NCBI GenBank assembly: GCA_964555555.1
Contig: CAZKSQ010000001.1
Location: forward strand, 1-40,578
DNA: 40,578 nucleotides
Source of the DNA: an uncultured Candidatus Saccharibacteria bacterium
GTDB lineage: Bacteria; Patescibacteriota; Minisyncoccia; Phycocordibacterales; PALSA-1337
Direction: 5' to 3'
The notes under the pieces are model-generated. The model was given only the letters and a program-made list of their open reading frames with translations. It ran no database searches and was not told where the DNA came from. The first letter of the stretch is position 1, and each line of letters opens with the position of its first letter. Made by a program: the position numbers and the translations under genes. Shown piece by piece: positions 13,499-40,578 of this stretch.

Positions 13499-13570
13499 GC
13501 TCCTATAGTTTAATGGATAGAACGCGGGCCTCCGAAGCTCGCGATGCAGGTTCGATTCCTGCTGGGAGCA
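13499..13570 (+). tRNA. tRNA-Arg (anticodon CCG)
   Basis: Acceptor GCTCCTA/TGGGAGC. Anticodon stem CGGGC/GCTCG with loop CTCCGAA. T arm GCAGG-TTCGATT-CCTGC. Discriminator A. Confidence 0.9.
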
Positions 13571-13661
13571 CACTCAAGGTCGATGCGGAGAAGTGGCTAA
13601 ACTGAGCCATGTCACGTATCTGGCAACAGTCAAAAGTTGGTTCGATTCTCGCGGAGGTTAT

Positions 13662-14981: not shown

Positions 14982-15353
14982 ATACCTAAGGGATGACGCA
15001 ACCCCTCCGAGGAGTCCAGGAGGGGTGGAGTTGATAACTTTTAACCTAAAACTTAAACAAATTGACGACATTTGATCGGTGGACAACTAAAATGACTATC
15101 ACACAACATTATGATATTGTACTTACACAACTGAATATGTGCCTAAACCTGCGAAAGCAGGCATGGCAAATAGTCCGGTAAAGATTAGAAAACCCATCAT
15201 GTGGTTCTTGTCTTTACCGGCCATATCAGGAAACTGGTATGGGGAGCTTTGGCTCTCACCCATGTGGTGGGCTTTCTCATGCCACTATTATATGGGTAAA
15301 AGAGGTATAATTTGTTTATTAGAATTATTAAAGGTCAGTTATTATAAAATAAA

Positions 15354-17078: not shown

Positions 17079-17144
17079 ATATGAATTAGTTAGTTAACTG
17101 CTTATCTTCGCACTAGTGTGACCGCTAGGCATTATCTTCACAAT

Positions 17145-18410
17145 ATGAAAAATTTGCAAAAAGGTTTTATTGTCCCATTATTAATTGGCATTATAATTAT
17201 AGTGGTATTACTGATTAGTGGTGGCGCTTATATTTATCAGATTAAGAAAACGGTACAGTCAGAATCTCAAAATACCCAAACACAAATATCGAATCATACG
17301 ATGACGATTAGCGATATAAATATCAGCACAAAAGCAGATATTAAATCAGCATCACCAAAAACTGTTGTGGTCAATCAGGAACTTAGTGTTACTGGTATGG
17401 AAAAATATACTGATTCAGTATTCGGCTACTCCTTTTGGTATCCGTCTTCTTGGGTAGTCAATGAAAATACCAATGTAAATTTAGGAAATATCTACACAGA
17501 TGGTGTCATAACAAAAGAAACAACGATTGCTTCACCGCGATATCCTCGTGATGGCATAGCAATAGATGAGTTCTATTCAAACAACAAAAGCATTACTGAT
17601 AACTCAGTCTGTGGTCCTGCGGACGGATGCCCATCATCTGTACGTTATTACTTTGACAGCAATGCACATACTTGGATGAAAGATTCAAATATGGGCTATG
17701 GACAAGGTCAGTATTCGCTATCCAACATTATGACTGTCGCAACAAACGTATCTACTAATTCTATGGGCGGTCTTCATATTCTTAATGGCAATGCTCGATT
17801 CGGTGATGATGTAATTGTCCCATTGAGTGCCAGCAATTTTCTCATTGTCAGAAATATGAGTGCTGGAACAAATAAGGTCTTTTATCTGGCCAACACGATT
17901 GTTGCTCTTGATCCGGCTGTTGCTACACCACTATCACTATCGCATCAAATTGATGCCATTAGAGCCGAGAAGAATGAGTACAATTTCTCTGCGACTTCTT
18001 GGTCGACGTATAATTTCGGTAATAATAAAATTGATTATCCGAGTGACCTCACTATTCAAAATAGTCCAGGAGGTTGGAATGGAGATTCACCGATCTTCTC
18101 ATTCCCAAGTTCTTACCTTGTCGGATCCAATCTATATGAAGCCAAAATTAATATTATGAGCAGTGTTGGAAATGATCCACCGACAGGAACACAGGTTAAT
18201 ATCAACGGCACAAATTGGACAATGAGTGATTTGCAGAGTTGCAGCGATAGAACGGGTAATTGCAATCGGGTCATAATTTACGGAATATATGGGGCTGGAA
18301 ATACATCGTGGAATTTAAGTCTAATGGCTTCGGATAAGAATAGTCTGAATAGTTTGGCTGCTCAAAATATAATATCAATCTTTACGAAGATGGTCGGTAC
18401 TTATATATAA
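17145..18410 (+). CDS. Hypothetical membrane-anchored/secreted protein
   Basis: ATG at 17145 gives MKNLQKGFIVPLLIGIIIIVVLLISGGAYIY, a signal anchor. The extracytoplasmic part is about 390 aa and Asn/Ser/Thr-rich. No recognised motif. Confidence 0.65.
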   Translation: MKNLQKGFIVPLLIGIIIIVVLLISGGAYIYQIKKTVQSESQNTQTQISNHTMTISDINISTKADIKSASPKTVVVNQELSVTGMEKYTDSVFGYSFWYPSSWVVNENTNVNLGNIYTDGVITKETTIASPRYPRDGIAIDEFYSNNKSITDNSVCGPADGCPSSVRYYFDSNAHTWMKDSNMGYGQGQYSLSNIMTVATNVSTNSMGGLHILNGNARFGDDVIVPLSASNFLIVRNMSAGTNKVFYLANTIVALDPAVATPLSLSHQIDAIRAEKNEYNFSATSWSTYNFGNNKIDYPSDLTIQNSPGGWNGDSPIFSFPSSYLVGSNLYEAKINIMSSVGNDPPTGTQVNINGTNWTMSDLQSCSDRTGNCNRVIIYGIYGAGNTSWNLSLMASDKNSLNSLAAQNIISIFTKMVGTYI

Positions 18411-18465
18411 ATGAGTTAAATATAGATGATAGGTTTGTTTCAGAATTAATATAGGTATAACTAAT

Positions 18466-23766: not shown

Positions 23767-23897
23767 TTCTTTATAATAAACACTTTCTTTAATGAATTGT
23801 AAAATCAATTTCCACTTCCATATATTGTTACCCAAATGTTTTATACGCGACAAAATAATGTTAAAATTGTAGCAGGCTTCTTTAAATCGATAATGTT

Positions 23898-26381: not shown

Positions 26382-27148
26382 AGATGAATTTTTCAAGCGT
26401 AAACTGGTCAAAATTTTTTTTGGTTCAACTATTTGCTTTTCTGATTGCGGGCTACGCCTTTGTATATAACATTTCTACATCTTTTCTATTTAATCAATAT
26501 ATTGATTCTGATGATTTATATTTTCTATTTGCACCTAGAGGTGTTGCCTGGCTCCATTATCCCTTTGTCACACTTATCGTTTTTATAATCATTTCCTTTT
26601 TATTATCTATGATAATAAATCGAGAAACAAGAAAAGCTGGTTATACTATCGGATGGTCGTTTACGGTATTGGGTCTCATGATTCTATTTCTCGTAAATAT
26701 GGGGGATCACTCTGATACTGCCCAGTTTGTCTTCTTTAGTATGGTCGGCCAGACTAGTGTTTTTGTTCTGTTACCTTTGCTTGTAGTACTGCCGATAGTA
26801 TTTTTTATCAGCGAAAAGTTGAAGGTAAATGAGATCGGAGTTGTTTTTGTTCTTGCCGTTATAGCACTGGCAATAAATATTGCATACATCAATACTTGCG
26901 GCTTTGGAAACAATGCAAAATGTGAATTACGGCAGCGGATTATCAAATTTGACGCCTCTGCATGTGAAGTTCCGGGATTGGCCACTTTTGAGAAAAATAA
27001 TTGCTATACCCTGATAGCAGCATATTCTGGAGATACAAACTTGTGCTCAAGTGTGGTTACATATGACAAACATAGCGGATTTACATGGCCAAAAGAGGAT
27101 TGTCTGAATAGAAAGAAATTTGATGACAGACTTCTTTACCATTTCTAG
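26378..27148 (+). CDS. Polytopic membrane protein with a Cys-rich C-terminal extracytoplasmic domain
   Basis: ATG at 26378 overlaps the upstream TGA (ATGA coupling). About 5-6 TM helices, then a tail of about 85 aa with 6 Cys. No recognised family. Confidence 0.65.
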   Translation: MKMNFSSVNWSKFFLVQLFAFLIAGYAFVYNISTSFLFNQYIDSDDLYFLFAPRGVAWLHYPFVTLIVFIIISFLLSMIINRETRKAGYTIGWSFTVLGLMILFLVNMGDHSDTAQFVFFSMVGQTSVFVLLPLLVVLPIVFFISEKLKVNEIGVVFVLAVIALAINIAYINTCGFGNNAKCELRQRIIKFDASACEVPGLATFEKNNCYTLIAAYSGDTNLCSSVVTYDKHSGFTWPKEDCLNRKKFDDRLLYHF

Positions 27149-27204
27149 TTTTCTTGTTTTACATCACCTCATTTGATAATGTACAAAAAGAAAGGAGATA
27201 CGAT

Positions 27205-27417
27205 ATGCAAGTGAAAATCGGCTCTGGAATTGCAAACAAGGATCCGGATAATCGCGACTTTACTGTGACACTCATTCCGGAAACAGCAGAGGAAAATGAA
27301 GCACTGGAGATTATGAGATCTTTTTCCAGTATATCAAAGACCTTCCACGGCTTCTTGCGTTCTGCCTATGAGGTTAGTGTGCACGGAGTTGGTGTTACCG
27401 TATCCTTGTTCCCGTAA
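27205..27417 (+). CDS. Small hypothetical protein (70 aa)
   Basis: ATG at 27205 is preceded by AAAGGAG at 27190-27196 with 8-nt spacing, and followed by a terminator. No homology recognised. Confidence 0.5.
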   Translation: MQVKIGSGIANKDPDNRDFTVTLIPETAEENEALEIMRSFSSISKTFHGFLRSAYEVSVHGVGVTVSLFP

Positions 27418-27423
27418 GACTGT

Positions 27424-27452
27424 AGAGAGTATCCAGCTGGGTACTCTCTTTT
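27424..27452. terminator. Bidirectional terminator hairpin between the two convergent island operons
   Basis: AGAGAGTA-(10-nt loop)-TACTCTCT followed by TTTT. It lies between the stop at 27417 (+) and the stop at 27460 (-). Confidence 0.6.
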
Positions 27453-27459
27453 CATATAA

Positions 27460-29295
27460 TTAAAACTCTGCTCCGAAGATTTCCTTAAATTTTGTCGTAT
27501 GTTCGGTAACAGTTTTTTCATTCTGCTCTATTGCGTCCAAATCTATAATGAGATCATGCTGAAATCTCAGCTCCTTTCGGCTGAACATTATTTCGGACTT
27601 ACTCTTTTTGCTCTTCTCATGAGTATTTATCGCTACTTGTATGGCTTCATTATTTTGTTCAATATGTTCCTTGATAATTTTCAATCTCTCCGTTACGTGT
27701 TCAGCCATATCTACGTCATATATTTTTGAGATTTTATCCAAAACGCTTTTAAAGGCTAGAAGTTGGGAATAGCTGTTAATAAGATCATCTCGTCTTGCCA
27801 TAAAAGCGACCCCCAATGCCGCATCTTTGAACTTTAAAACTTCCTTACTATCCTCTACGATTTCCTCGAAAAAAGCGTTTCCTCTTGTAAGAGCAGAAAT
27901 TTTTGAAACAGTCATGCCAAACATACTGAATATATCCGCCTCACCCTCATCATTCATGCTGCAGACCAAAAGCTCCTGATCAAGGTGTTCGCTTTTGTGA
28001 TCGGGGTCATTTTCGTCATAAACCAGACCCAAATTTGGATCATATCTGTCTACTTGTTCCTTGAATTTTATGACAAAATCGTAATCTTCAGTAAAAGCGC
28101 ACAAGCTTTCGCCGCTGATAACACTTCCTTCGAATGGCTCAAACGCGACTTTTTCTTCAATTTCGCCTTTTTCTGTTATTTCAATGCCAATATTTTCTAA
28201 TACTTTTCTGGCTGTTTCCAGTTCGCCGTTATACAGGCCTTTGCTGTAAAGCATATCTTTTCTGGTTTCTTCTTCAGTTCGCTCGCGCAACACAAGCTCA
28301 CCAGAAATGACATGACCTTGTAGAATATTTCTGGCCTCGACTTTCGTCGAAAGCCATCTGTCTAACAGCTCCGAGGAATTACTTACTGAAAGCGGCCGAT
28401 AATCATTAAGGATTCCTGCTTCTATTCCTATACGGAGACCTTCCTTGAGCATTTCCTCAACTGATATTTTGTGTTCCGCGGCGTATGACACAACTGATGC
28501 AGTCACATCATTGCAGGTGACGCTGTCTTCGTCGTCACATTCCTGATTTTTAGATAACGGTTTGCCGTTAATTTTAATACCCTTACTCCTCAAAAAGTAT
28601 TTAGCGACCTCGACCAAAGGGATGCAGGCAAAATAATGAAAAAGCTGGTATTCCTTGGCGAATTTATTATAGCTTTTTTCTGCTACGAGTTCCGCCAGTC
28701 TTTCTTTGGCTGTGTCCGAGAGTTCAGATTTTCCGTTGTATAGATTTGCCAAGATTTCTTCTTGATCAAGATATTGGTGGTCAGTTTCAATATCGGGGTA
28801 GAGTTCATTCATTTTCTCTTTGTCTTCTGAGCTAAGCATCTGAAATGCGAGGTTATATACGGCATGTTCTAAGTCAACACCTTCTCGTATTTTTACTGCT
28901 CTTTGCTTAGTTGCAATCTCTGTTGCTTCTTCTACAGTCACTTTCTTTATTTGCTTCAAGGTATTAATGCATCCCGCCATCTCTCTGTGACCGGGATACG
29001 AAAGGAGCTTCATGATTATCGGCAGTTGTGATAGGTACGCTATTTTTGCATCCTTGTAAATGAGTTCTGCTTCGATTTCCATCCTGCCGGAATATTTCCA
29101 ACCGTCGTTTAAACGATTCCATTCTCGCGCCTCAGTGCTATTGTTTGAGTGCCAATTTTCTAGAGCATCCTTGTCTGCCGGAGTAAGTATTTCTTTGCCA
29201 GTCTTCATTTTGTGCACGTCATTTTTTATGAGCAGCAGGAATCTCTCCCGTGCCGTAAGATTTCCTCGATGAAGCATATTTGTGAGATTTTGCAT
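27460..29295 (-). CDS. Hypothetical 611-aa acidic, predicted helical protein (no recognisable domain)
   Basis: Long uninterrupted ORF, last gene of the minus-strand island operon. Its start is 1 nt after the upstream stop. Glu/Asp/Lys-rich, with no TM segment and no catalytic motif I can name. Confidence 0.7.
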   Translation of the reverse strand: MQNLTNMLHRGNLTARERFLLLIKNDVHKMKTGKEILTPADKDALENWHSNNSTEAREWNRLNDGWKYSGRMEIEAELIYKDAKIAYLSQLPIIMKLLSYPGHREMAGCINTLKQIKKVTVEEATEIATKQRAVKIREGVDLEHAVYNLAFQMLSSEDKEKMNELYPDIETDHQYLDQEEILANLYNGKSELSDTAKERLAELVAEKSYNKFAKEYQLFHYFACIPLVEVAKYFLRSKGIKINGKPLSKNQECDDEDSVTCNDVTASVVSYAAEHKISVEEMLKEGLRIGIEAGILNDYRPLSVSNSSELLDRWLSTKVEARNILQGHVISGELVLRERTEEETRKDMLYSKGLYNGELETARKVLENIGIEITEKGEIEEKVAFEPFEGSVISGESLCAFTEDYDFVIKFKEQVDRYDPNLGLVYDENDPDHKSEHLDQELLVCSMNDEGEADIFSMFGMTVSKISALTRGNAFFEEIVEDSKEVLKFKDAALGVAFMARRDDLINSYSQLLAFKSVLDKISKIYDVDMAEHVTERLKIIKEHIEQNNEAIQVAINTHEKSKKSKSEIMFSRKELRFQHDLIIDLDAIEQNEKTVTEHTTKFKEIFGAEF

Positions 29296-29296
29296 G

Positions 29297-29515
29297 TTAT
29301 TTTCTCTTTTTTAGCGTCTGCTCAAGAAATTCAATCCTCTCTTTCAGGTTCGAGACCTCGATCATCTTTGAAAAGGCAAGAGCCAGGCGCGATACGACCA
29401 CGGCGCGTCGAAGCGTGGTTTTTCTTTGGGCTACTTCCTCCAGTGTTTCAGAGACGATTGTGGCCGCATCTTCTAAGCTCATGCATTTCTTTTCATTTTT
29501 GTCTGGTGTATTCAT
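29297..29515 (-). CDS. Small coiled-coil-like protein (72 aa)
   Basis: ATG at 29515 lies 11 nt after the upstream stop. The longer 29554 start would overlap the upstream gene. Contains a heptad-like LKERIEFLEQTLKKRK. Confidence 0.5.
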   Translation of the reverse strand: MNTPDKNEKKCMSLEDAATIVSETLEEVAQRKTTLRRAVVVSRLALAFSKMIEVSNLKERIEFLEQTLKKRK

Positions 29516-29526
29516 AATATTGTCGG

Positions 29527-29916
29527 TTACATTCCTTCCACGATCTCCATCCAAGCCCTCACTTCTGCCGCTTTGCCTGTTTTGGTTGCTTCGCGGTAGA
29601 GTGCGGATAGCACGTTTGGAGTCAATTTCTTAGCCCACGAGGAAATATTTTTCATGAGCCCGCCTGATTCCTCGATTTTCTTGTTCCACGCGGAAAGTGT
29701 TCCTAAATCTTTTATGCCGAATCGTTTGGCAAAATCGGTCTGATTCTTGATATCAAGAAGTGCCATAGCCATTTCGTCATCGATGCCAAGCTTCTCGATT
29801 ACATGTCTTGGCTGTCCGCGGAGAATCGAAGGCATTGATCGCCAAAGCACATAGGATTCGAATTCCTGCTTTTTGTATATGTTCAAGGATTCGCCATCTT
29901 TCGCATCGTTTTCCAT
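29527..29916 (-). CDS. Small phage/plasmid-type HTH DNA-binding protein (weak resemblance to terminase small subunit)
   Basis: 129 aa. NQTDFAKRFGIKDLGTLSAWNKK looks like an HTH, and the C-terminal ALYREATKTGKAAEVRAWMEIVEG resembles phage small HTH proteins. The resemblance is weak. Confidence 0.5.
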   Translation of the reverse strand: MENDAKDGESLNIYKKQEFESYVLWRSMPSILRGQPRHVIEKLGIDDEMAMALLDIKNQTDFAKRFGIKDLGTLSAWNKKIEESGGLMKNISSWAKKLTPNVLSALYREATKTGKAAEVRAWMEIVEGM

Positions 29917-29921
29917 ATGTT

Positions 29922-30689
29922 TTAAACATGCTGTATGAGTTCAGCTTTTCTATTTGTTAATTTCTCCCATCGCTCGACTATGGTGGAGCAGTACGATTCT
30001 TCATATTCGATGGCAAGGCATCTTCTACTCAATTGTTTGCAGGCAATGAGAGTTGATCCTGATCCGGCGAATGGGTCATAGACTATGTCTCCTGGCTTCG
30101 TACTGTGATATATGAGGCGACGCAGTAGTGCGGGCGGTTTCATGGTCGGGTGGAGCCTGCTTTTATTCGGCTTCGGGTAAAAGAGAGCGGTTTTGTCCTT
30201 ATTGCCGAAGTAAGGATGTGTGCCGTACCAGCCATAAAGTATGAGCTCATGTTGAGGGTGAAAGTCCTTACGCCCCATGACAAGGTGATTCTTTAGCCAG
30301 ATCAAAAGAGCTGATTTTGTGAAATTACTATCGTGCAGGGCGTTCAAAAGCTCTCGCAGTTTTGCGTCGCTATTGAATATGTAAAAAGCATTCTTCTCGT
30401 ACAAATGAGGTTTTATAACCCAAAGCCAATTCTTTGAAAAACTATAATAATCTGTTCCAATATTATCACCTTTGATGGGGATAAATTCTTTCCCGTTTAC
30501 TCCTTTGTGAATAGTTTGCAGGAATTCCTGTTTGTTTTCGACATACCCGACTCCATAGGGTGGATCGGTCAAAATAAGCGTCACCTTGTCATTTATGATT
30601 AATTTGTCGACATTTTCTTTCTTGGTTGCATCTCCTAGAAGGAGACGGTGATTGCCTAGCTTCCACATTTTAATTAATTTTTTGTGCAT
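29922..30689 (-). CDS. DNA methyltransferase, beta-class N6A/N4C (DPPY, then FxGSG)
   Basis: Contains LGNHRLLLGDAT, LILTDPPYGVGY, HPTMKPPALL and YDPFAGSGSTLIACKQL. Start is ATG at 30689 or 30668; the longest ORF runs to 30746. Confidence 0.85.
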   Translation of the reverse strand: MHKKLIKMWKLGNHRLLLGDATKKENVDKLIINDKVTLILTDPPYGVGYVENKQEFLQTIHKGVNGKEFIPIKGDNIGTDYYSFSKNWLWVIKPHLYEKNAFYIFNSDAKLRELLNALHDSNFTKSALLIWLKNHLVMGRKDFHPQHELILYGWYGTHPYFGNKDKTALFYPKPNKSRLHPTMKPPALLRRLIYHSTKPGDIVYDPFAGSGSTLIACKQLSRRCLAIEYEESYCSTIVERWEKLTNRKAELIQHV

Positions 30690-31932
30690 GGTCTCCGGTG
30701 AAATGCTCATAACGGCGAACGATGAGGTCGCAGAATGTCGGGTCAAGTTCGACTAAAAATGCCCGACGCTTCAGTTGCTCTGCGGCGATGAGTGTTGAAC
30801 CGCTACCGCCAAAGAGGTCGAGTATAATCTCACCCGGTGCGCTACAGCGTTTCATTGGCTTTTCGTTCAGTGTGATCGGTTTCTGGGTTGGATGTTCGTA
30901 GTCGGCAGTGTTGTCGCGCTTAACGAGCCATAGCTGGACGATTGACATAATGTCGTCATATGAGCCGATCGAATTTACCTCTTTGTTCAATACCTCGGAA
31001 AGATTCTTAACACTCGGGTTCAGTGCTGGACTGCCTCTCGTGCCATATACGCAAGGCTCGATAACTTTATTGAATGCCACCTGTGGTGTTGGATCAAAGT
31101 TATTTTTTACCCAGAAGCAAATACGACGGTTGACCATGCTATTTTTCTCATACAGGTTCTGTAGTAACCAGACATATTTTTCGTCACACCAATAGAAGAC
31201 ATGGACATTGGGATTGCTGGCGGCTAAAGCATTTCTTAGCGATTGTTCAATAAATGATTCATACTCCCTCGTGCCTTTATTGTCGTTCACCATATTATCC
31301 GGCGTATATTTGCCCTTGGTGCCAATACCTTTACGGTAGTCGAGGCCTATATTGTATGGAGGATCGCAGTAAATCATATCAGCCTTTTCTTTACCCATGA
31401 GCTTTGTGACAATGTTTGGATCCAGTGCGTCCCCACAAATGAGACGGTGTTTGCCAAGTTCATAGATATCGCCAACTTTCGTTTCCGGCGTGGTTATCTT
31501 CGCCAATTCTTGCGGAACGTTAAATCCATCATCAGAAATATCAAGCACATCGTCAAAGAAATTATTGAGATCATCCGGTGTAAAGCCGACATCAAGAAGC
31601 ATGTTTGTATCAAAAAGCTTCAGAAGCTCCTCATCCCAATTTCCCAGATTTTTGTTTAGCCGTAGGTTCAGCTCTTTTTCGCGCTCGATTTCCGGAATGT
31701 CGAGATATACTACGGGTACTTCAGTGAAGCCTAGCGTAGTCGCAACCTTAAAACGCAAGTGTCCACCGATTAAAATATTCTTTCTAGCAGGTGCACCATT
31801 AACGATGAGGGGATCGCATAGTCCGAAGCGCTTGATGCTCTCGGTCATGTCAGAGATAATTTTGTCGTCCCATTTTCTGGGATTGTAGGCGGTCGGCTTC
31901 AATTCTTTGATTTGTACTTGCTCTATTTTCAT
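30670..31932 (-). CDS. ParB-like nuclease domain fused to a beta-class DNA methyltransferase
   Basis: The N-terminus (IKELKPTAYNPRKW...SIKRFGLCDPLIVNG) is ParB/Srx-like. This is followed by GKHRLICGDA, IYCDPPYNIGLDY, HPTQKPITL and LDLFGGSGSTLIAAEQL. Confidence 0.85.
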   Translation of the reverse strand: MKIEQVQIKELKPTAYNPRKWDDKIISDMTESIKRFGLCDPLIVNGAPARKNILIGGHLRFKVATTLGFTEVPVVYLDIPEIEREKELNLRLNKNLGNWDEELLKLFDTNMLLDVGFTPDDLNNFFDDVLDISDDGFNVPQELAKITTPETKVGDIYELGKHRLICGDALDPNIVTKLMGKEKADMIYCDPPYNIGLDYRKGIGTKGKYTPDNMVNDNKGTREYESFIEQSLRNALAASNPNVHVFYWCDEKYVWLLQNLYEKNSMVNRRICFWVKNNFDPTPQVAFNKVIEPCVYGTRGSPALNPSVKNLSEVLNKEVNSIGSYDDIMSIVQLWLVKRDNTADYEHPTQKPITLNEKPMKRCSAPGEIILDLFGGSGSTLIAAEQLKRRAFLVELDPTFCDLIVRRYEHFTGDHAQKIN

Positions 31933-32001
31933 GATAGTTGTTTATGTATTACTGATAAGTGAAGTATAGTAACTATTTAAGGCAAAAAAATATGTTGATA
32001 A

Positions 32002-32544
32002 TCAAAATCCGCCGAGTTTTGGCACTTTCACGGCGAAAGAAAGACCAAGCTTTTTCAACTGGATTTTGGCCACATCAAGACTAACTTTGAAGATTTTTGC
32101 GATATCTTCGATATATACGGCTGGTGTTGTTTTGTATATCTCACGAATCACTACTTCTGGCATCAGAATATTGCCGGAAAACTCATCACAAAGCCTTTCA
32201 TCCCAAGTTTTGCTGTTTGCCGAACAGTAGACTGTCTTCGGTTGATTCGGGAACAAAACCATGTGTGCTAGTTCATGCCCGGCCGAAAAGCGCTGACGTT
32301 CGATGACCTCTCTCTCATTTATAGCAACGATCCATCCCGCATGCATGTCTTTTGTTGAAAAAGCTGACGTGCTTTCGGGGAAAGGAATATCTAATCTTTG
32401 GGCGATCTGGACATCACCGACGTATGACTCGATGATGTCGGTTATAGGGATAGGAATCTTAAATAGACCGCAGTCAGCGGCTTCCTTTAGGATTTCATTT
32501 ACTTTGTTATTGGCTTTGATCCGCCATTCGGGAGGAATTAACAT
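32002..32544 (-). CDS. ImmA/IrrE-family zinc metallopeptidase
   Basis: HELAHMVLF supplies the HExxH motif in a DUF955-like context. ATG at 32544 lies 7 nt after the XRE gene stop. This is the typical ImmR/ImmA pairing. Confidence 0.8.
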   Translation of the reverse strand: MLIPPEWRIKANNKVNEILKEAADCGLFKIPIPITDIIESYVGDVQIAQRLDIPFPESTSAFSTKDMHAGWIVAINEREVIERQRFSAGHELAHMVLFPNQPKTVYCSANSKTWDERLCDEFSGNILMPEVVIREIYKTTPAVYIEDIAKIFKVSLDVAKIQLKKLGLSFAVKVPKLGGF

Positions 32545-32551
32545 GGTAAGA

Positions 32552-32890
32552 TTAATTATTAAATTGTTTCTTGATAAGCTCAATGAAAGCTTCGACTGCC
32601 TTGCTCTGTGTATCGTCAAGATTATATTTAGCTCGAAGAAAGGTCGGGGTGCTTGCTTTGGCGATGTAGTCTTCTTGGGTTATACCTGCCTTAGTTAATA
32701 TTAGCTCGACAGGTTCTTTGAGGCCGTTAGCGATTTGTCGAAGTGTTCTAATTGACGGGGAATCTTCGGCGTACTCTCCCTGCTCCAATCGTGAAATATA
32801 TCCGCGGGTAAGCTTGGCATCCTGAGCGAGCTTTTCCTGCGTCATATTTTTATCCTCACGCAAAGACTTTATGACATCGTGCAGTTTCAT
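32552..32890 (-). CDS. XRE-family helix-turn-helix transcriptional regulator
   Basis: IKSLREDKNMTQEKLAQDAKLTRGYISRLEQGE is a canonical Cro/C1-type HTH. Confidence 0.85.
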   Translation of the reverse strand: MKLHDVIKSLREDKNMTQEKLAQDAKLTRGYISRLEQGEYAEDSPSIRTLRQIANGLKEPVELILTKAGITQEDYIAKASTPTFLRAKYNLDDTQSKAVEAFIELIKKQFNN

Positions 32891-33297
32891 AGCTTCAGTT
32901 CAACTTATACTTCTAATGCTTCGACTGCATGAAGTATACCAAGCATGGCTACAAGGTTACAATAGTGTACATCTGTGGATATTGTACTATAGCACTAAAT
33001 ATTATTCTTGTCTATTTATTTACGAAGCCCAAATACTGTCGACTTACCTAAATGAGAATAGTTAATATATCTTTATATTAGGCCATTATTTGGCAAAACG
33101 GACCATCAAACAAGTGCTTAGGATTTGGCTTTGTTTGGGTTTTGCACCATCATTAAAATGCCTGATTTGCTGAAATATGACCCCTATGCGGAGGGGTAAA
33201 GGTTCTACTTGATGTGATGCTCAGGAACCCTTACACTGCCTAACATCACTCCGTCCGAGACGCGGATGGAGCACAAAAACGAGTGCAGCGAGTTTTT

Positions 33298-33432
33298 GTG
33301 CTCCAAAGCGACGCGCCTTCGCGCGTTGCGCGCAGGAATCGAAAAGGTCGAACATATTTTTGAGGGGGCATCCTCCCTCAAAAATGTGAGACCTGTATAG
33401 GTCCTGTAAGGACAGATTCCTGCTGGGAGCAC
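33298..33432 (+). ncRNA. Structured element copy A (about 135 nt), ending in the tRNA-Arg(CCG) 3'-end duplicate
   Basis: Four helices: GTGCTCC/GGAGCAC (closing); hairpin 33308-33329; GCAGGAATC/GATTCCTGC (33332-40 / 33415-23); hairpin 33356-33385 with loop GGCATCCT. It is homologous to 36535-36670, with compensatory changes. Transcription is not demonstrated. Confidence 0.45.
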
Positions 33433-33470
33433 TGTGTTTAGATATGTTCTATCGTATTTGATTATTGGAT

Positions 33471-36428: not shown

Positions 36429-36501
36429 GGTGCCTATGGTGTAATGGTTAGCACTAGAGCTTGTGGAGCTTTCAGTTCGGGTTCGAATCCCGATAGGCAC
36501 C
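36429..36501 (+). tRNA. tRNA-His (anticodon GTG) with encoded G-1
   Basis: G-1 pairs with C73. Acceptor GTGCCTA/TAGGCAC. Anticodon loop TTGTGGA. T arm TCGGG-TTCGAAT-CCCGA. Confidence 0.9.
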
Positions 36502-36506
36502 CCGAT

Positions 36507-36532
36507 AAAAATCCGCGATAAGCGGATTTTTT
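36507..36532 (+). terminator. Terminator-like hairpin immediately after tRNA-His
   Basis: AAAAATCCGC-gataa-GCGGATTTTT followed by T. Confidence 0.55.
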
Positions 36533-36534
36533 GA

Positions 36535-36670
36535 GGGGTGCCTAAGCAAAGCGCCTGCGCGCTTTGCGGTCGGGATTCGAAGACCTTGAGCATATTTTCG
36601 GTGGGGCATCCTCCACCGAAAATGCGAAAGGTGTACAGAGTCTGTAAGACTCGAATCCCGATAGGCACCC
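36535..36670 (+). ncRNA. Structured element copy B (about 136 nt), ending in a 20-nt duplicate of the tRNA-His 3' end
   Basis: Helices: GGGTGCCTA/TAGGCACCC (closing); hairpin 36546-36567; CGGGATTCGA/TCGAATCCCG (36571-80 / 36651-60); hairpin 36594-36623 with loop GGCATCCT; small hairpin AGTC-TGTAA-GACT. Same architecture as 33298-33432. Confidence 0.45.
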
Positions 36671-36782
36671 ATTGATATCGCATTCCTGTAATAAAAAACA
36701 AAATGCGGCGGCTACTCTGGGAGAGTCATGCGTCGACATGATTTTTGGAGTGTATCGACAAAATTAAACAAAAAGAAAAATT

Positions 36783-36938
36783 ATGAATGACGACAAAGTT
36801 CAAAGAGCCGAAGAAAAAGCAGATAAGTCCGAAGCGAATGCAAAACAAGATCGGGCTGATAGTGACAAGGCAGTAGCAGTTGAATCAAAAGAAAAGGCCG
36901 AGGCTTCCCAAAAAGAAGCAGACAAAGCCAAATCTTAA
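36783..36938 (+). CDS. Possible small Lys/Glu/Ala-rich protein (51 aa)
   Basis: ATG..TAA ORF, below the ORF-track size cutoff: MNDDKVQRAEEKADKSEANAKQDRADSDKAVAVESKEKAEASQKEADKAKS. No clear RBS. The low-complexity sequence makes it uncertain. Confidence 0.3.
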   Translation: MNDDKVQRAEEKADKSEANAKQDRADSDKAVAVESKEKAEASQKEADKAKS

Positions 36939-37040
36939 GAACTCACTTTGAGGATTCTGCTTTAGAGCAACCCCTGCAATCTGAAATATGGTTACGGGGT
37001 TTCATTTCCATATAGTGAATCACAGGGTAGGGTAAAACGC

Positions 37041-37094
37041 AGGAATATAGATTGTTGCATCATCCATCCTCTCAAACTTCCTCTACGACAGCAC
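37041..37094. repeat. Dispersed repeat copy 1 (flanks the lipoprotein gene)
   Basis: GGAATATAGATTGTTGCATCATCCATCCTCTCAAACTTCCTCTACGACAGCAC resembles 37811-37875. Confidence 0.45.
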
Positions 37095-37167
37095 TCTAGC
37101 AGGAATAAAATTAAAATATCTTTTATTTAGATTGTAAAACCAGTTCGGTTTTTAGTATAATTGCGTT

Positions 37168-37779
37168 ATGAAAATCTCTTATAAAATCTATGTGGCGTTT
37201 TCGCTCATTTTAGTCATTCTAATATCGCTTTCACTTTCCAGTTGCGTTGTGCATGCAACTGCTCCAGCACCAGCGAGCGCTTCTTGTCCATTTCATGCTA
37301 CTGTTATTTCATATAAGCAAACTTTTCACCAAGCTGCCGGTGCTATATATCGTGGAAACACTAAGATAGATGTTCCTGAATTTGATATATATGATGTTGT
37401 TTTGAAAATAAACAGCTCGACTTCAAAGGATAATTTATGTCCCACAAAGGGTGAAGAGATAACATCGTCACTTATTGCCACGAATCCAGATTCGTATGTA
37501 CAGCCCACGATGACAGGAAAGGATATATTAGTAAACGGAATCATAATAGAAGGTACACTTCTGGCTATGGATTCTTCTAACATTGGGTTGAGCAAGACTT
37601 TTACTTTAAATCAAATAAGTATTGTCACTAAAGTTCTAAACTCTGCCACCAACACCCCAATAATCATATCAACATCGACATCGCTTATGGCTACCTCAAC
37701 GTCCGATGTGCAAGTTATTTCACAGCCAATACCAAAAAGATTCGTTTGGTGGAATCCGTTTACGTGGTTTGGTTACTGA
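37168..37779 (+). CDS. Putative lipoprotein/secreted protein
   Basis: Signal peptide with the lipobox-like ISLSLSSC. 203 aa, Ser/Thr/Ile-rich. Confidence 0.6.
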   Translation: MKISYKIYVAFSLILVILISLSLSSCVVHATAPAPASASCPFHATVISYKQTFHQAAGAIYRGNTKIDVPEFDIYDVVLKINSSTSKDNLCPTKGEEITSSLIATNPDSYVQPTMTGKDILVNGIIIEGTLLAMDSSNIGLSKTFTLNQISIVTKVLNSATNTPIIISTSTSLMATSTSDVQVISQPIPKRFVWWNPFTWFGY

Positions 37780-37810
37780 TTAAGATATAGTGAACTCTGG
37801 GGTCGAATGT

Positions 37811-37875
37811 GGGAATGTAAATTGTCGCATCACTTCTCCTCTCAAACACAGTTCTAACATCCTCTACGACGGCAC
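37811..37875. repeat. Dispersed repeat copy 2
   Basis: GGAATGTAAATTGTCGCATCACTTCTCCTCTCAAACACAGTTCTAACATCCTCTACGACGGCAC. On the minus strand both copies translate to ...AVVE(E/D)V...DATIYIP(A/T)F..., with copy 1 interrupted. Confidence 0.45.
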
Positions 37876-37972
37876 CCATCGTTATTTTCTGGCAAGATAG
37901 CCTCGTTTCAGTTGGTATTTTCAGTTCTGACCTGATAGACTTTTGTACGGATATGAGACTCAAAATTATTTT

Positions 37973-38326
37973 ATGAATAAAGCAAAAAATGTAGACGAAT
38001 ACATCACGAAAGCCCCAAACGAAATTCGGGGTAAACTGAAAGAGCTTCGTACGCTGATCAAAAAGCTTGCCCCAGATGCAAAAGAACGCATCAGTTACGG
38101 CATGCCGTTTTATGATTACAAAGGACGACTTGTCTATTTTTCCAATGCTAACGGATACATCGGCCTTTATATCCCACCACCCATAATTGTCGAACATGCA
38201 GTCGACCTGAAGGCTTACATAACAACCAAGTCCGCAATACACCTACCTGTCAAAAAACTGCCCATATCGCTTATCAGGAAATTAATCAAAGCACGGATGA
38301 AATATAATGTATCTAAGCTTAATTAA
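37973..38326 (+). CDS. DUF1801 (YdhG-like) domain protein
   Basis: NVDEYITKAPNEIRGKLKELRTLIKKLAPDAKERISYGMPFYDYKGRLVYF matches the DUF1801 pattern. ATG at 37973. Confidence 0.7.
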   Translation: MNKAKNVDEYITKAPNEIRGKLKELRTLIKKLAPDAKERISYGMPFYDYKGRLVYFSNANGYIGLYIPPPIIVEHAVDLKAYITTKSAIHLPVKKLPISLIRKLIKARMKYNVSKLN

Positions 38327-38440
38327 GCCATATCCATCTCTTGGTGCCTTTTCACTTTTATATTTTATTCAAAATAGCTTTTAAAATAGGCTATTTGTGT
38401 GATAAAAGTCTCTGTATCATTAGGGCAATATAGTAAAAGA

Positions 38441-38479
38441 TTAGTGAATTAGTACCATAATAAGCTAGTAATTCACTAA
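38441..38479. promoter_or_regulatory. 11-bp perfect inverted repeat (candidate operator) just upstream of the fic promoter
   Basis: TTAGTGAATTA (38441-38451) and TAATTCACTAA (38469-38479), separated by 17 nt. The repeat ends 3 nt before the -35 hexamer. Confidence 0.4.
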
Positions 38480-38482
38480 AGT

Positions 38483-38511
38483 TTGACAATAAGGAGTGAA
38501 AAGACTATTAT
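38483..38511 (+). promoter_or_regulatory. Sigma70-type promoter for the fic gene
   Basis: TTGACA (38483-38488), a 17-nt spacer, TATTAT (38506-38511). The ATG is 26 nt downstream. Confidence 0.5.
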
Positions 38512-38536
38512 ATTAAAAGTTAATTAACCAAATATC

Positions 38537-39439
38537 ATGGCTATCACCAAACCAATCATAACTAGACTACAAAATCTAAAGACAGAGTACGAGACTCTTA
38601 AAAAAGGAAAAGAGTCACTTTTGGTAATGGTTAATGATGCTGAAGTTGCTGAGGCGGTTTATAACTCGAATGCGATTGAGAACTCAACACTCACTCTTAT
38701 TGAAACAGAAAAGATTCTTCTGGAAATGGCAGTCGCTAGAGAGGTGTCGGTCCGAGAAGTGTTCGAAGCAAAGAATCTTGCTCGAGTTGTTGCTTATATA
38801 AGAAATAAATCTCAAGAAACAGAAATAAATAAAGAAATTATTCTCTTTCTGCACCAGATGCTCATTAGCGGAATAAAAGACGATATTGCTGGTCGTTTCA
38901 GAAAAGTTGGTGAATATGTACGAGTGGGGACCCATATTGCACCAGCCCCAGAACATGTTGAGCGAATGATTGATGCATTGCTCTCTGAATATACCGGAGA
39001 CATTGCAAGTTTTTTTGTAGATAAGATTGCGAAATTCCATCTCGAATTTGAAACGATCCACCCATTCAACGACGGGAATGGTCGTATTGGTCGTGTCCTA
39101 ATAAACTATCAATTTCAGAGGCTAGGTTTTCCTGGAATAATCATTCGTGATAAAGAAAAGAAAGACTATTACAGTACATTTGCTGAATATCGAGAAAAGA
39201 AGACGGCAAAGAAAATGGAAAAGATTATCGCACTCGCACTCATGGAATCACTCCATAAGAGAATTACTTATTTGAAGGGTGAAAAGATTATTACTTTAGC
39301 TGATTATGTTAAACAGAACAATAAATCTGCACCAGCCCTAGCAAATGCCGCACGTCGACAGAATATCCCAGCCTTCAGAGAGAGGGGAGTATGGAAGATT
39401 GCCGAGAATTCTGTATACGAAGGGGCTAAAGAAAAATAA
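38537..39439 (+). CDS. Fic-family protein (class II, intramolecular inhibitory motif) with a C-terminal DNA-binding-like tail
   Basis: The Fic motif HPFNDGNGRIGR lies at 39059-39094. The N-terminal SNAIEN fits the [ST]xxxE[GN] inhibitory helix. Confidence 0.9.
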   Translation: MAITKPIITRLQNLKTEYETLKKGKESLLVMVNDAEVAEAVYNSNAIENSTLTLIETEKILLEMAVAREVSVREVFEAKNLARVVAYIRNKSQETEINKEIILFLHQMLISGIKDDIAGRFRKVGEYVRVGTHIAPAPEHVERMIDALLSEYTGDIASFFVDKIAKFHLEFETIHPFNDGNGRIGRVLINYQFQRLGFPGIIIRDKEKKDYYSTFAEYREKKTAKKMEKIIALALMESLHKRITYLKGEKIITLADYVKQNNKSAPALANAARRQNIPAFRERGVWKIAENSVYEGAKEK

Positions 39440-39537
39440 TTATATGGCAATACTCGATGAATTAAAATCTACTCTAACCGACAGGCTTCGGCCTAATGTT
39501 CTTGTAATAGAACCCGAAACGCAACGTCATCTGTTGT

Positions 39538-39747
39538 ATGCAGATTTCAGGATGGGATTGGACTTTTTTGTGGATTATTCTATGGGTATTCATTTGGCCC
39601 GTCTTTTTGGTTTTCATGCAAAGGATGCGAGGGAGAAGGGACAAACACAGCGAAAATGATAAATCTGCGCTCGATATCCTCAAGGAGCGCTATGCTAAAG
39701 GCGAGATTGATAAGGTAAAATTTGATGAAATGAAGAAGGATTTGTAA
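39538..39747 (+). CDS. SHOCT-domain small membrane protein
   Basis: An N-terminal TM helix (WTFLWIILWVFIWPVFLVF) plus the C-terminal ALDILKERYAKGEIDKVKFDEMKKDL, which is the SHOCT signature. Confidence 0.7.
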   Translation: MQISGWDWTFLWIILWVFIWPVFLVFMQRMRGRRDKHSENDKSALDILKERYAKGEIDKVKFDEMKKDL

Positions 39748-39791
39748 TTGAACAAAAAAATCGTTCGGCTTTTGCGATATAATGCCATATC

Positions 39792-40578
39792 ATGTGGCAA
39801 CAAGCTACCGACCCTCTCCAAAGCATCGCCTTGTCGGCAACTGTAGCCGTCATACCCATCATTTTTTTGTTCGCGCTCCTTATCAGCCGGAAAGTCGCTG
39901 GGCATATAGCCACGGTAATGACGCTAATAGTTGGGTTTATTATTGCTGTAGTAGTCTTCGGCATGCCGGCTGGCTTGGCGGGAATGTCTGCTTTGTATGG
40001 AATGATTTCAGGCCTGTTTCCCATCGGCTGGATCGTCTTGAATGCGGTTTTTCTTTATAATATCAGCGTCGAGAGCGGCAGTTTTGCCATCGTTAGGGAC
40101 AGCATTGAATCAGTTACTTCCGATAGGCGCATACAGGCATTGCTTATCGCATTCTGCTTTGGTGCTTTCCTCGAAGGCGCGGCTGGCTTCGGCGCCCCAG
40201 TCGCCATCACTGCCGGAATGTTGGTGGGCTTGGGCTTCGAAGCGTTCTATGCTGCGGGCGTTTGCCTCATAGCCAACACTGCGCCTGTCGCATTTGGCGG
40301 CATAGGAATAGCTATCATCACAGCTGGGCACCTCACCAATATCGATCCTGATATTTTGAGCAAGATGATAGCTCATCAGTTGCCATTCATCGCTTTTATC
40401 ATCCCGCTCTGGCTGGTGCTCATCATTTCCGGCTGGAAGGGCGCCAAGGCCGCCTGGCCGGCAATACTGGTAACTGGTGCATCTTATGCTCTCACTATGT
40501 TCCTTACGGCGAGCTTCTTGGGACCGACTCTGCCTGACGTGCTCTCGGCTATCGTCTCAATACTTTGTCTCATTGGGC
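39792..40578 (+). CDS. L-lactate permease (LctP family), 3'-truncated by the window end
   Basis: Open frame from ATG 39792 to the window end; it is absent from the ORF track because it has no stop. MWQQ...IPIIFLF...LFPIGWIVLNAVFLYN...IQALLIAFCFGAFLEGAAGFGAPVAITAGMLVGLGF...CLIANTAPVAFGGIG are canonical LctP blocks. Confidence 0.9.
   Translation, partial: MWQQATDPLQSIALSATVAVIPIIFLFALLISRKVAGHIATVMTLIVGFIIAVVVFGMPAGLAGMSALYGMISGLFPIGWIVLNAVFLYNISVESGSFAIVRDSIESVTSDRRIQALLIAFCFGAFLEGAAGFGAPVAITAGMLVGLGFEAFYAAGVCLIANTAPVAFGGIGIAIITAGHLTNIDPDILSKMIAHQLPFIAFIIPLWLVLIISGWKGAKAAWPAILVTGASYALTMFLTASFLGPTLPDVLSAIVSILCLIG

Follow-up and report, generated by a model that had tools for sequence, protein, structure and literature searches.

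Duplicated tRNA-His 3' end flanks a folded, non-coding module

What does it signify when a short copy of a tRNA gene's own 3' end appears just downstream, with a strongly folded sequence and no gene in between? The question is raised by the tRNA-His(GTG) locus in the DNA analyzed here, a 40,578-nt stretch of an uncultured Candidatus Saccharibacteria genome (the window). The initial annotation had pointed to a 20-nt repeat, TCGAATCCCGATAGGCACCC, at positions 36483 to 36502 and 36651 to 36670, and had weighed two readings, a decayed remnant of a tRNA-targeting integrative element and a functional tRNA-linked RNA or switch. The two copies are identical, and in shuffled sequence no match turned up at tolerances of up to 3 mismatches. 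The first copy forms the 3' end of tRNA-His (ARAGORN, 36430 to 36503; Rfam, 60.6 bits), a gene that ends in ...CACCCCG without an encoded CCA. The interval between the copies was found to contain the terminator-type hairpin and the strongly folded element B that had been described there, and no credible ORF. This locus, hereafter module B, consists of the following parts:

36429 to 36503, + strand: tRNA-His(GTG) (ARAGORN; Rfam tRNA, 60.6 bits), with G-1 encoded at 36429
36483 to 36502, + strand: X1, first 20-nt repeat copy, from the tRNA-His T-loop to C74; exact repeat, 0 expected by chance
36507 to 36532, + strand: linker with terminator-type hairpin AAAAATCCGC-GATAA-GCGGATTTTTT (sequence and folds)
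36535 to 36544, + strand: X'a, GGGGTGCCTA, the 5' strand of P1; antisense to the tRNA-His acceptor 3' strand, discriminator, and C74-C75
36546 to 36567, + strand: P2, a 9-bp G+C-rich hairpin with a variable tetraloop (fold; pairing across 5 copies)
36570 to 36580, + strand: X'b, TCGGGATTCGA, the 5' strand of P3; antisense to the T-loop 3' half and the T-stem 3' strand
36583 to 36632, + strand: P4, a long hairpin interrupted by a GA/GA internal loop and an AU bulge; its apex GGGGCAUCCUCC (36603 to 36614) is invariant
36638 to 36652, + strand: P5, a short hairpin with an invariant CUGUAAG loop region
36651 to 36670, + strand: X2, second 20-nt repeat copy; exact repeat, its counterpart decaying in copies C and E

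The hairpin at 36507 to 36532 is of the bidirectional terminator type and sits at the tip of the hairpin formed by X1 and the antisense segment X', which P2 splits into X'a and X'b at the acceptor/T-stem boundary. The P5 loop and an upstream (C/G)TGTA form a direct repeat, 11 nt apart, that adjoins the junction. Element B folds at -80.8 kcal/mol (z = -9.3), and positions 36483 to 36650, folded as an excised unit, reach -63.5 kcal/mol (z = -12.8). A promoter-like site was looked for in module B and none was seen; the DNA downstream is low in GC and island-like. Rfam 15 scans (gathering thresholds and E ≤ 5) detected only the tRNA and weak hits that overlap it, and left 36533 to 36672 and 33295 to 33434, the equivalent region of the tRNA-Arg locus described below, unmatched; ARAGORN made no tRNA or tmRNA call on the module, and no description of such an element was found in the literature.

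Five modules share one layout behind five different tRNAs

The window contains a second module (module A), the one in which the initial annotation had recognized a parallel layout at the Arg locus. That layout is borne out: TGGAGCAC lies at 33267 to 33274, a 13- to 14-bp hairpin at 33268 to 33304, and element A at 33298 to 33432. What had been overlooked is that the 3'-terminal 18 nt of element A (33415 to 33432) match exactly the last 18 nt of tRNA-Arg(CCG) (13554 to 13571), located 20 kb upstream. The parts of module A and its tRNA are:

13499 to 13571, + strand: tRNA-Arg(CCG), the last 18 nt of which (13554 to 13571) are the X1 partner of module A
33267 to 33304, + strand: left part of module A, with TGGAGCAC (33267 to 33274), a linker loop, and X'a GTGCTCC (33298 to 33304)
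33308 to 33413, + strand: core of module A, with P2 (33308 to 33329), X'b GCAGGAATC (33332 to 33340), P4 (33345 to 33394; apex 33365 to 33376), and P5 (33401 to 33413)
33415 to 33432, + strand: X2 of module A, GATTCCTGCTGGGAGCAC, identical to the tRNA-Arg(CCG) end; 2 matches, 0.01 expected

The 13- to 14-bp hairpin is made up of TGGAGCAC, the linker loop, and X'a together, and TGGAGCAC is read as the remainder of the original tRNA-Arg 3' end. Elements A and B are ~80% identical overall, and of the 50 base pairs that they share, 17 differ on both sides.

Scanning public collections of genomes and metagenomes for the pattern brought up three further modules, directly 3' of tRNA-Val (copy C, locus L005), tRNA-Leu (copy D, L006), and tRNA-Tyr (copy E, L007), so that the module recurs as a family and is not peculiar to one locus. 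All five lie directly 3' of a tRNA in one orientation and share the same order: the tRNA, a short linker, P2, a segment antisense to the T-loop and T-stem, P4, P5, and a copy of the tRNA 3' end. Each module is non-coding, spans ~150 to 170 bp, and is flanked by direct repeats of the local tRNA, from T-loop to trailer, of 18, 20, ~20, 24, and 23 nt (A to E, respectively). The linkers vary: the terminator hairpin is confined to copy B, and the linker of module A, GAGTGCAGCGA, resembles that of copy C, GAGTCCGCGA. Since every copy carries a repeat of the final ~20 bases of its own tRNA, the family resembles a new miniature mobile element and not simple debris.

The copies were all obtained from a single sample series and belong to CPR bacteria, namely a Paceibacteria-like organism and a Saccharibacteria metagenome-assembled genome; with probably two organisms represented, they are not five independent lineages. 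The samples concerned are ENA ERZ27245395-408 and their runs, SRR8543846, and JGI 3300031240, 3300028573, and 3300028800. A, B, D, and E were found together in the same samples and may share one genome, and contigs, including those of independent assemblies, break inside the modules, as is expected of a repeat. C and E are surrounded by housekeeping genes, and no recombinase lies close to either; a Bro-N gene is located downstream of D. Searches of phage and plasmid collections by blastn with the module produced no match, and scans of IMG/VR with three patterns gave only chance matches that were rejected by the covariance model. A candidate degenerate module after tRNA-Leu(GAG) was discarded because its fold z was -0.9 and the covariance model gave no hit.

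A recombinase island separates module A from tRNA-Arg

The 20 kb between tRNA-Arg and module A are occupied by a genomic island with a large serine recombinase (LSR):

13572 to 33266: lower-GC island, ~19.7 kb, between tRNA-Arg and module A; GC falls from 49% to 40%
13572 to 13591: proposed LSR P' arm
13662 to 15086, - strand: LSR gene (Pfam), within the island
15140 to 15257: LOOT RNA, within the island
33249 to 33266: proposed LSR P arm

Other genes in the island, annotated with Pfam, encode a subtilase, two N4/N6 methyltransferases, and an HTH and M78 peptidase pair. Given this arrangement, the module might be the recombinase-distal arm (the attP P arm or the attR-proximal region) of islands that integrate into tRNA genes, and copies B to E would then be CIME-like leftovers of deletions in which the interior was lost between the tRNA-end copy of attL and an internal partial copy (TGGAGCAC in A). 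On this view, the hairpins would serve the island as binding sites or as a regulatory RNA. Module A does lie at the exact far end of a 19.9-kb stretch that has an LSR gene beside tRNA-Arg and is bounded by the identical 18-nt repeat, and the internal partial tRNA-end copy that precedes it offers a simple deletion route to a layout of the B type. The island-like, low-GC DNA after B and the Bro-N gene after D also fit this explanation.

It nonetheless appears unlikely. LSR attP sites span ~50 bp, with imperfect dyad symmetry around the crossover, and are common to islands of the same family. In all four related islands, the P' motif CAAGG..GA.GCGGAG begins directly after the tRNA end, which places the crossover between ...GCAC and A and not in the T-loop. 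On the other side, the sequence that precedes 33267, CTCCGTCCGAGACGCGGA, is a mirror image of the P' arm (..GCGGAG) at equal distance, as an LSR attP should be, whereas the 3' part of the module is not; judging by inspection of the short motifs CTCCG/CGGAG, the mirror, CTCCG..CGA at 33249 to 33266, thus lies outside the module. Three other LSR islands showed no module within the fetched flanks, and their far ends were either beyond those flanks or not recognizable; blastn-short of the window's P arm against the other island loci gave no informative match, and no LSR relatives were found in IMG/VR. Moreover, LSR homologs number in the thousands, compared with only three other loci that match the module pattern in all collections. 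The stand-alone copies B, C, D, and E carry neither the P' motif nor gene fragments, five identical compact layouts are not expected from independent deletions, and C and E have housekeeping genes on either side. Weak similarity led us to reject the idea that the linkers of D and E are degenerate LSR P' arms.

Judging from these sequence features, the LSR island is most likely a later, unrelated insertion at the extreme 3' end of tRNA-Arg(CCG) that split the tRNA from an already existing module A. The choice between a later insertion and an island arm is based on short motif symmetry and on rarity, no second island having been seen with both ends. If it is correct, one locus can stack independent events, with an LSR island between a tRNA and its module.

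The fold is conserved by compensatory change

The initial annotation had taken covariation as a sign of constraint beyond decay, and the five copies bear this out. In their alignment, pairing extends to 95.5% of the cells, and both partners have changed in 25 of 50 pairs; none of 500 shuffles reached this level, and slid controls gave at most 5 such pairs, in a set of only five sequences of which D and E are 92% alike. P2, P4, and P5 are 100% paired in the five copies even though core identity is 66 to 79% (92% for D and E), with both sides changed in 6 of the 9 pairs of P2 and in 9 of the 20 pairs of P4. Variable columns are also more frequent at paired positions (41/77) than at unpaired ones (9/32). 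The module is therefore a conserved structured nucleic acid with compensatory change beyond that due to relatedness, and the compensatory changes speak against small ORFs within it. The four G·U sites in P2, P4, and P5, and the lack of any A·C, identify the tRNA-sense strand, to which the G·U pairs are confined, as the folded one; a G·U at the P4 apex is present in all five copies. These data fit RNA and single-stranded DNA equally.

The arms are antisense to the end of their own tRNA, including 1 to 4 nt past the discriminator, and so are not copies of the tRNA 5' strand. X1 and X' can form 20 to 22 bp in A, B, and C and 9 to 10 bp in D and E, where the acceptor-antisense X'a, and with it the P1 arm, is absent. 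The long target duplex is thus not essential; X'b, conversely, is kept in all five copies. X2 has degenerated in C and has been mutated in E, and X' still matches X1 in both. For example, X' of copy C pairs with X1 over 11+11 bp, compared with 6+8 bp for X2.

A switch between mutually exclusive helices had been proposed for the tRNA-His locus. As proposed, GGGGTGCCT(A) at 36535 to 36544 can pair with either partner (10 bp for X1 and 9 bp for X2), and the minimum-energy fold of the whole stretch takes the upstream one. The five copies do not support the switch as it was described: copy C has a degenerate downstream partner and copy E a mutated one, and P1 is missing from D and E. The two-way pairing is therefore not conserved and is a by-product of the duplication. 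In copy B, moreover, the module is set apart from its tRNA by a terminator.

The conserved fold also bears on a reading of the module as a structured, tRNA-linked non-coding RNA, made as a tRNA 3' trailer or from a promoter of its own. In such an RNA the closing helices would imitate acceptor and T stems, and either tRNA-processing enzymes would set its ends or the folding and maturation of the upstream tRNA would be modulated. The strand-specific fold with its G·U pairs, conserved loops, and covarying stems agrees with this explanation, as do the P1 and P3 helices, which together resemble stacked acceptor and T stems (with G-1:C73 in the case of His), and the antisense arms, which still match their own tRNA end as those of a cis-acting regulator would. 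There is also no terminator between tRNA and module in C, D, and E, where a read-through RNA should include the module. In B, however, a strong terminator intervenes and there is no promoter-like site. Neither the tRNA-like stack nor the two-state pairing is conserved, given the missing P1 in D and E and the decayed partner in C, and P1 extends past the discriminator, unlike in a processing substrate. Neither an Rfam family nor a tmRNA or tRNA-like call was obtained, and the 18- to 24-nt tRNA repeats and the spread to five tRNAs in two phylum-level lineages are left unaccounted for. We regard an RNA of this kind as improbable.

That repeat and fold arose by chance or by misassembly is extremely improbable: short-read metagenome contigs can be chimeric at repeats, and several do end inside the module, but the same tRNA-module junctions occur in independent assemblies from several samples and pipelines, no such repeat is expected by chance, fold z-scores are -9 to -13, and the covariation controls are clean.

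A possible miniature insertion element with a replacement tRNA 3' end

tRNA genes are classic landing sites of genomic islands; to our knowledge, the known occupants of these sites are kilobase-sized and encode their own recombinase. The modules would represent a different kind of occupant. We tentatively propose, with a probability of about 45%, that A to E are miniature, non-coding, fold-dependent insertion elements that enter the T-loop region of tRNA genes and carry a replacement tRNA 3' end. The insertion point would be in the T-loop, around position 56/57, after GGTTC. X1, the first part of the element, would be an element-borne tRNA 3' end that leaves the tRNA gene intact; it would be followed by the short variable linker, by the X1-antisense segment in which P2 divides X'a from X'b, and by the conserved hairpins P4 and P5 as the closing part. 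X2 would be the displaced original 3' end, remaining just downstream as an 18- to 24-nt direct repeat and free to decay. In a single strand of DNA or RNA, pairing of X1 with X' could, by analogy with folded recombination sites, rebuild the target duplex beside the conserved hairpins, where an enzyme supplied in trans may recognize it. The repeats vary in length from 18 to 24 nt, which is at odds both with a staggered cut of fixed width and with any simple rule.

We infer mobility from layout and distribution only, because no empty site, excised form, or autonomous relative was found. An empty site or an orthologous locus was sought through neighboring genes: the 481-aa neighbor of tRNA-His has no close homolog, and homologs of Bax1-I (≤64% identity) show no synteny. 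Exact-protein look-ups returned only the same loci from other samples, with the module present and no empty site, and neither the loci of LSR homologs nor the pattern scans contained a full-length, recombinase-bearing relative of the module.

A further reading, which we consider quite unlikely, is a self-contained, nucleic acid-guided homing element: X'a-P2-X'b would be a reprogrammable guide that picks a tRNA end by 18 to 22 bp, and P4 and P5 would recruit a host or trans-encoded enzyme. It would be the smallest known guide-bearing mobile element and would repair the very tRNA that it interrupts.

If elements do enter the same spot in different tRNAs with a replacement end and its antisense, and if their fold is under selection, they would add a new, minimal type to the known kinds of site-specific mobile DNA; if the antisense arms help to choose the target, they would be a natural case of programmable targeting. 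Small "att duplications" behind CPR tRNA genes need not be scars. Even under the competing explanations, the module remains a structured element absent from catalogs, and its covariation is unusually clean.

Comparison with known systems

Elements that integrate in tRNA genes classically have an identity block that extends from the T-loop to just beyond the gene. The modules share such attL/attR-type repeats, 18 to 24 nt at all five loci and reaching from the T-loop to just past the gene, with CIMEs and other recombinase-less, att-flanked remnants, along with the lack of a recombinase and the intact tRNA. To this extent the remnant proposed initially was aptly described. That it is decayed and retains only an att-proximal part is unsupported, given the same compact layout at five tRNAs, the fully paired stems, and the lack of a full-length relative; within the limited sampling, pattern scans returned only stand-alone copies. 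Unlike CIMEs, the module is only ~150 bp long, contains no gene fragments, has three compensatorily conserved hairpins and a repeat-antisense segment, and has no known parent element.

A structural parallel is offered by the forked-hairpin attP of CTXphi and IMEX and by the attC site of integrons. There too, direct and inverted copies of the target fold on one strand into an imitation of the duplex with extra-helical branches, in a strand-specific manner and with structure kept more than sequence, and integration of such a strand would yield the order X ... X' ... X seen in the modules. The module differs in that its target is a tRNA 3' end and not dif or attI: the junction lies between GGTTC and GA in the tRNA T-loop, and XerC/D boxes, R/L boxes, and a GTTRRRY core are all absent. 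Neither in the window nor at the other module loci was an Xer or IntI gene found. Moreover, the inverted copy is reduced to half in D and E.

MITEs and IS200/IS605-derived PATEs are likewise small, non-coding, and rich in hairpins, break assemblies, and are presumed to be mobilized in trans; they occur in several copies per genome or population, as the modules may. The modules are, by contrast, strictly tRNA-targeted and oriented, with long variable direct repeats in place of short fixed duplications or none; they have no terminal inverted repeats at their true ends (X and X' are not at both termini), show compensatory and not random change, and have no transposase partner in sight.

The bridge and seek RNAs of IS110/IS1111 elements and the EBS-IBS pairings of group II introns are comparable in being structured (~140 to 170 nt) and complementary to their own target over ~18 to 22 nt, and the antisense segments of the module differ by target (His, Arg, Val) as guides would. 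The module, however, has no ORF, reverse transcriptase, intron core, or two-loop bridge architecture, its fold being multi-branched and closed by the arms, and no DEDD/RuvC-like recombinase domain was found in the window. Its "guide" pairs with a target copy inside the same element, and D and E lack a matching acceptor guide.

Finally, tRNA-like RNAs (tmRNA, viral TLS, and mascRNA-type processing signals) resemble the module in closing helices that mimic a specific acceptor and T stem, including G-1:C73 of tRNA-His. They differ from it in that the module has no T-loop, D-arm analog, or free NCCA end and pairs past the discriminator, and the mimicry is absent from D and E.

Several other candidates were rejected. 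The arms match gene-encoded trailers and not CCA, as a primer-binding site for a mature tRNA would; the module is too small for a group I or group II intron, lacks an intron core, and has no Rfam hit; and a casposon-like target duplication is contradicted by the lack of terminal inverted repeats and by the varying repeat length. In a template and variable repeat pair of a DGR, differences should be adenine-specific, and those observed are not.

A folded module between two copies of a tRNA end

The window contains two copies of the 20-nt sequence TCGAATCCCGATAGGCACCC and no more. The first (36483-36502) forms the 3' end of tRNA-His(GTG), and the second lies at 36651-36670; chance alone would yield no match, even if three mismatches are permitted. 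The stretch between the copies contains no credible ORF and has a very strong fold (-80.8 kcal/mol, z = -9.3). Thus, the initial annotation was right to describe an exact duplicate of the tRNA end and a gene-less interval holding a terminator and a folded element. The parallel layout that it reported at the tRNA-Arg locus was also recovered in all its parts. The features of the two modules, B (His) and A (Arg), are as follows.

36430-36503, tRNA-His(GTG) (ARAGORN; Rfam, 60.6 bits), with G-1 encoded at 36429
36507-36532, textbook bidirectional terminator hairpin, between both copies of TCGAATCCCGATAGGCACCC
36535-36544, GGGGTGCCTA, able to pair with either copy of the tRNA-His end
33267-33274, TGGAGCAC, left part of module A
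33268-33304, 13-14-bp hairpin of module A
33432, end of element A
33415-33432, terminal 18 nt of A, an exact match to the tRNA-Arg(CCG) 3' end (13554-13571)

Modules A and B are ∼80% identical overall and adopt similar folds, with 17 of 50 shared base pairs changed on both sides. No Rfam family matches the module, whose structured core is uncatalogued. Scanning public genome and metagenome collections with a pattern derived from the conserved loops yielded three further copies.

Copy C, L005:554-693, directly 3' of tRNA-Val(CAC), in a Saccharibacteria MAG
Copy D, L006, 3' of tRNA-Leu(TAG)
Copy E, L007, 3' of tRNA-Tyr(GTA)

The metagenome that yielded D and E also contains a contig identical to the window, and the B, D, and E loci are found together in one ENA sample, which makes a single Paceibacteria-like organism or population the probable source of A, B, D, and E. 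The best matches of Bax1-I and of the large serine recombinase (LSR) encoded in the window are from Paceibacterota and Taylorbacteria, and the host of C was found in the same sample series as the other copies. Several assemblies stop inside the module, as assemblies do at repeats, which is consistent with a multicopy repeat in that population. At the tRNA-His, tRNA-Tyr, and tRNA-Leu loci, independent assemblies end within the module near the start of hairpin P4 (L014 2470-2527; contig ends of L018, L019, and L022).

Shared anatomy and covariation

Along the tRNA strand, the five copies share one order of parts: tRNA/X1, linker, (X'a), P2, X'b, P4, P5, X2.

X1, the last 18-24 nt of the tRNA
Linker, short and variable, 10-31 nt, with a terminator in B only
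X'a, only in A, B, and C, antisense segment covering the acceptor 3' strand and discriminator plus 1-4 trailer bases
P2, hairpin between X'a and X'b
X'b, antisense to the 3' half of the T-loop and the 3' strand of the T-stem
P4, long hairpin interrupted by a GA/GA internal loop and an AU bulge and capped by the invariant apex GGGGCAUCCUCC
P5, short hairpin with a CUGUAAG loop
X2, second copy of the tRNA end, after P5

The arms run past the discriminator and are thus genuine reverse complements of the gene's 3' end rather than copies of the tRNA 5' strands. Copies D and E lack X'a; their linkers (L006 2236-2249 and L007 2010-2022, minus strand) carry short palindromes (CGTACG; GATC) in place of the acceptor-antisense arm of A, B, and C, and that of D has an alternative pairing with the sequence just 3' of X2 (9 bp, one bulge).

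In an alignment of the five sequences, a small and partly nonindependent set, 95.5% of the cells are paired and 25 of 50 pairs carry changes in both partners, bearing out the covariation claimed in the initial annotation. None of 500 shuffled controls matched this pairing and covariation, and controls with the partner slid by 1-3 columns had at most 5 pairs changed on both sides. P2, P4, and P5 are 100% paired despite core identities of only 66-79% between copies (92% for D and E), and variable columns account for 41/77 paired versus 9/32 unpaired positions. G·U occurs at four sites of these three hairpins and A·C at none, which identifies the tRNA-sense strand as the folded one and places the constraint on a single-stranded nucleic acid. 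RNA and single-stranded DNA fit the data alike.

The two tRNA-end copies have fared differently. X2 is degenerate in C (14/22 positions match ungapped) and carries one substitution in E, while the antisense arms still fit their own tRNA end, pairing in C over 11+11 bp with X1 versus 6+8 bp with X2. This decay of X2 argues that the conserved interaction is that of X1 with X', and in the minimum-energy fold of the entire tRNA-His region, GGGGTGCCTA pairs with the upstream copy. Of the two mutually exclusive folds proposed earlier, both can form, but the pairing with X2 is a by-product of the duplication. The inserted unit would then run from X1 through P5 (36483-36650 in B); this segment alone forms an X1:X' hairpin with a P2 branch, followed by P4 and P5, and as DNA reaches -63.5 kcal/mol (z = -12.8).

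An LSR island between tRNA-Arg and module A

The 19.9 kb between the tRNA-Arg end and the repeat of A has a GC content of ∼40% versus ∼49%. The lower-GC segment 13572-33274 (∼19.7 kb) is an island that the LSR integrated at the very 3' terminus of tRNA-Arg(CCG); it also encodes a subtilase.

13662-15086, minus, LSR gene (Resolvase, Recombinase, and Zn-ribbon domains), first gene of the island
15140-15257, plus, full-length LOOT RNA (RF03000; 84 bits versus a gathering score of 46), just upstream of the LSR gene and divergent
29922-31932, minus, two neighboring N4/N6 DNA methyltransferase genes with a slight overlap, the second fused to a ParB N-terminal domain (ParB-N)
32002-32890, HTH regulator and M78 (ImmA/IrrE-like) peptidase pair, after the methyltransferases
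33249-33266, CTCCGTCCGAGACGCGGA, left of TGGAGCAC

At first sight, this layout fits a module that is an arm of the island or the leftover of a CIME, a recombinase-less, att-flanked remnant of an integrative element. Very close LSR homologues (70-86% identity) are plentiful in Paceibacterota and adjoin tRNA-Lys, tRNA-Gly, and tRNA-Glu in the related loci L002, L008, and L023. In these three islands, the arm motif CAAGG..GA.GCGGAG is conserved directly 3' of ...CAC/A, and the tRNA-end/motif junctions of the four islands read ...GAGCAC/ACTCAAGGTCGATGCGGAG (window), ...CCGCAC/AACCAAGGTCGACGCTGATG, ...GCGCAC/AAACAAGGCAGACGCGGAGG, and ...GGTCAC/AACTAAGGCCGATGCGGAGG. Since the motif begins right at the tRNA end in all four, the crossover is placed at the extreme tRNA 3' end. 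CTCCGTCCGAGACGCGGA mirrors the arm motif at the matching distance, and both arms joined give a ∼46-bp quasi-palindromic attP centered on GGAGCAC; the 3' part of module A has no such symmetry. Furthermore, the linker and X'a come after TGGAGCAC just as they come after the tRNA end in B and C, and the linkers of A and C are alike (GAGTGCAGCGA versus GAGTCCGCGA). No module was found near the other LSR loci within reach of the flanks examined, and LSR homologues are many whereas the module is very rare. Together, these features indicate that the island, the only one seen with both ends, probably arrived later, between tRNA-Arg and a preexisting module. They make an island arm or CIME leftover unlikely, as does the uniform compactness of the five copies.

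LOOT had no match near the LSR genes of L002, L008, and L023. The L002 island, near tRNA-Lys, carries two tandem LSR genes and a diversity-generating retroelement core consisting of a reverse transcriptase and a bAvd accessory gene (1030-2432 and 7754-10499).

A proposed miniature insertion element dependent on its own fold

The best-supported reading is that the module is a miniature noncoding insertion element that depends on its own fold. Such an element would occupy tRNA genes in their T-loop region, bringing a replacement 3' end (X1) and leaving the original end (X2) behind, and a folded site for attachment or recognition would be provided by the X1:X' hairpin beside the conserved hairpins. 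Integration of a single strand that carries a hairpin copy of its target would be expected to produce the order X ... X' ... X. CTXphi-type elements and integron attC sites follow such folded single-strand logic. We infer mobility, the crossover point, a single-stranded intermediate, and an enzyme alike. The window contains no recombinase gene beyond the LSR, and none adjoins C, D, or E. A full-length parent element, which the initial annotation had proposed to look for, was sought together with an empty site and a circle junction, and none of the three was found in the homologous loci and other-sample assemblies examined.

A tRNA-coupled RNA or switch would account for the strand-specific fold, and C, D, and E have no terminator between tRNA and module; however, B has one, no promoter-like site was found, P1 (the helix of X'a with the tRNA end) is lost in D and E, X2 has decayed in C, and duplication and spread are left unaccounted for. 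This reading is about as improbable as the CIME leftover. A role of the split antisense arm as a working, reprogrammable guide is more doubtful still. An artefact is ruled out by independent assemblies.

The proposed insertion element resembles CIMEs in its att-like repeats, CTXphi and attC in its folded-site logic, MITEs and PATEs in size and copy behavior, and guide-bearing element RNAs in its target-complementary arms, but lacks a defining feature of each. We file it among the recombinase-less elements at tRNA genes.

Other features near the tRNA genes

The spacer between tRNA-Leu(GAG) and tRNA-Arg(CCG) (13372-13498, plus) contains a nested hairpin drawing on the last bases of tRNA-Leu (GCACTGC...GCAGTGC) and repeated GCGAAGC/GCTTCGC motifs; it folds no better than shuffles (z = -0.9) and does not match the module model. 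Downstream of module B, GC content falls to 37-41% (36671-40578), and this segment, which abuts the second tRNA-His repeat and encodes small ORFs of no known kind and a Fic/DOC gene (38537-39439), may be another island; the window stops short of any far boundary. Finally, a T-arm-like fragment, GGTTCGATTCTCGCGGAGG (13625-13662, plus), lies ∼70-90 nt past tRNA-Arg, right after the LSR stop codon, and may be the remnant 3' piece of a different tRNA from an earlier integration.
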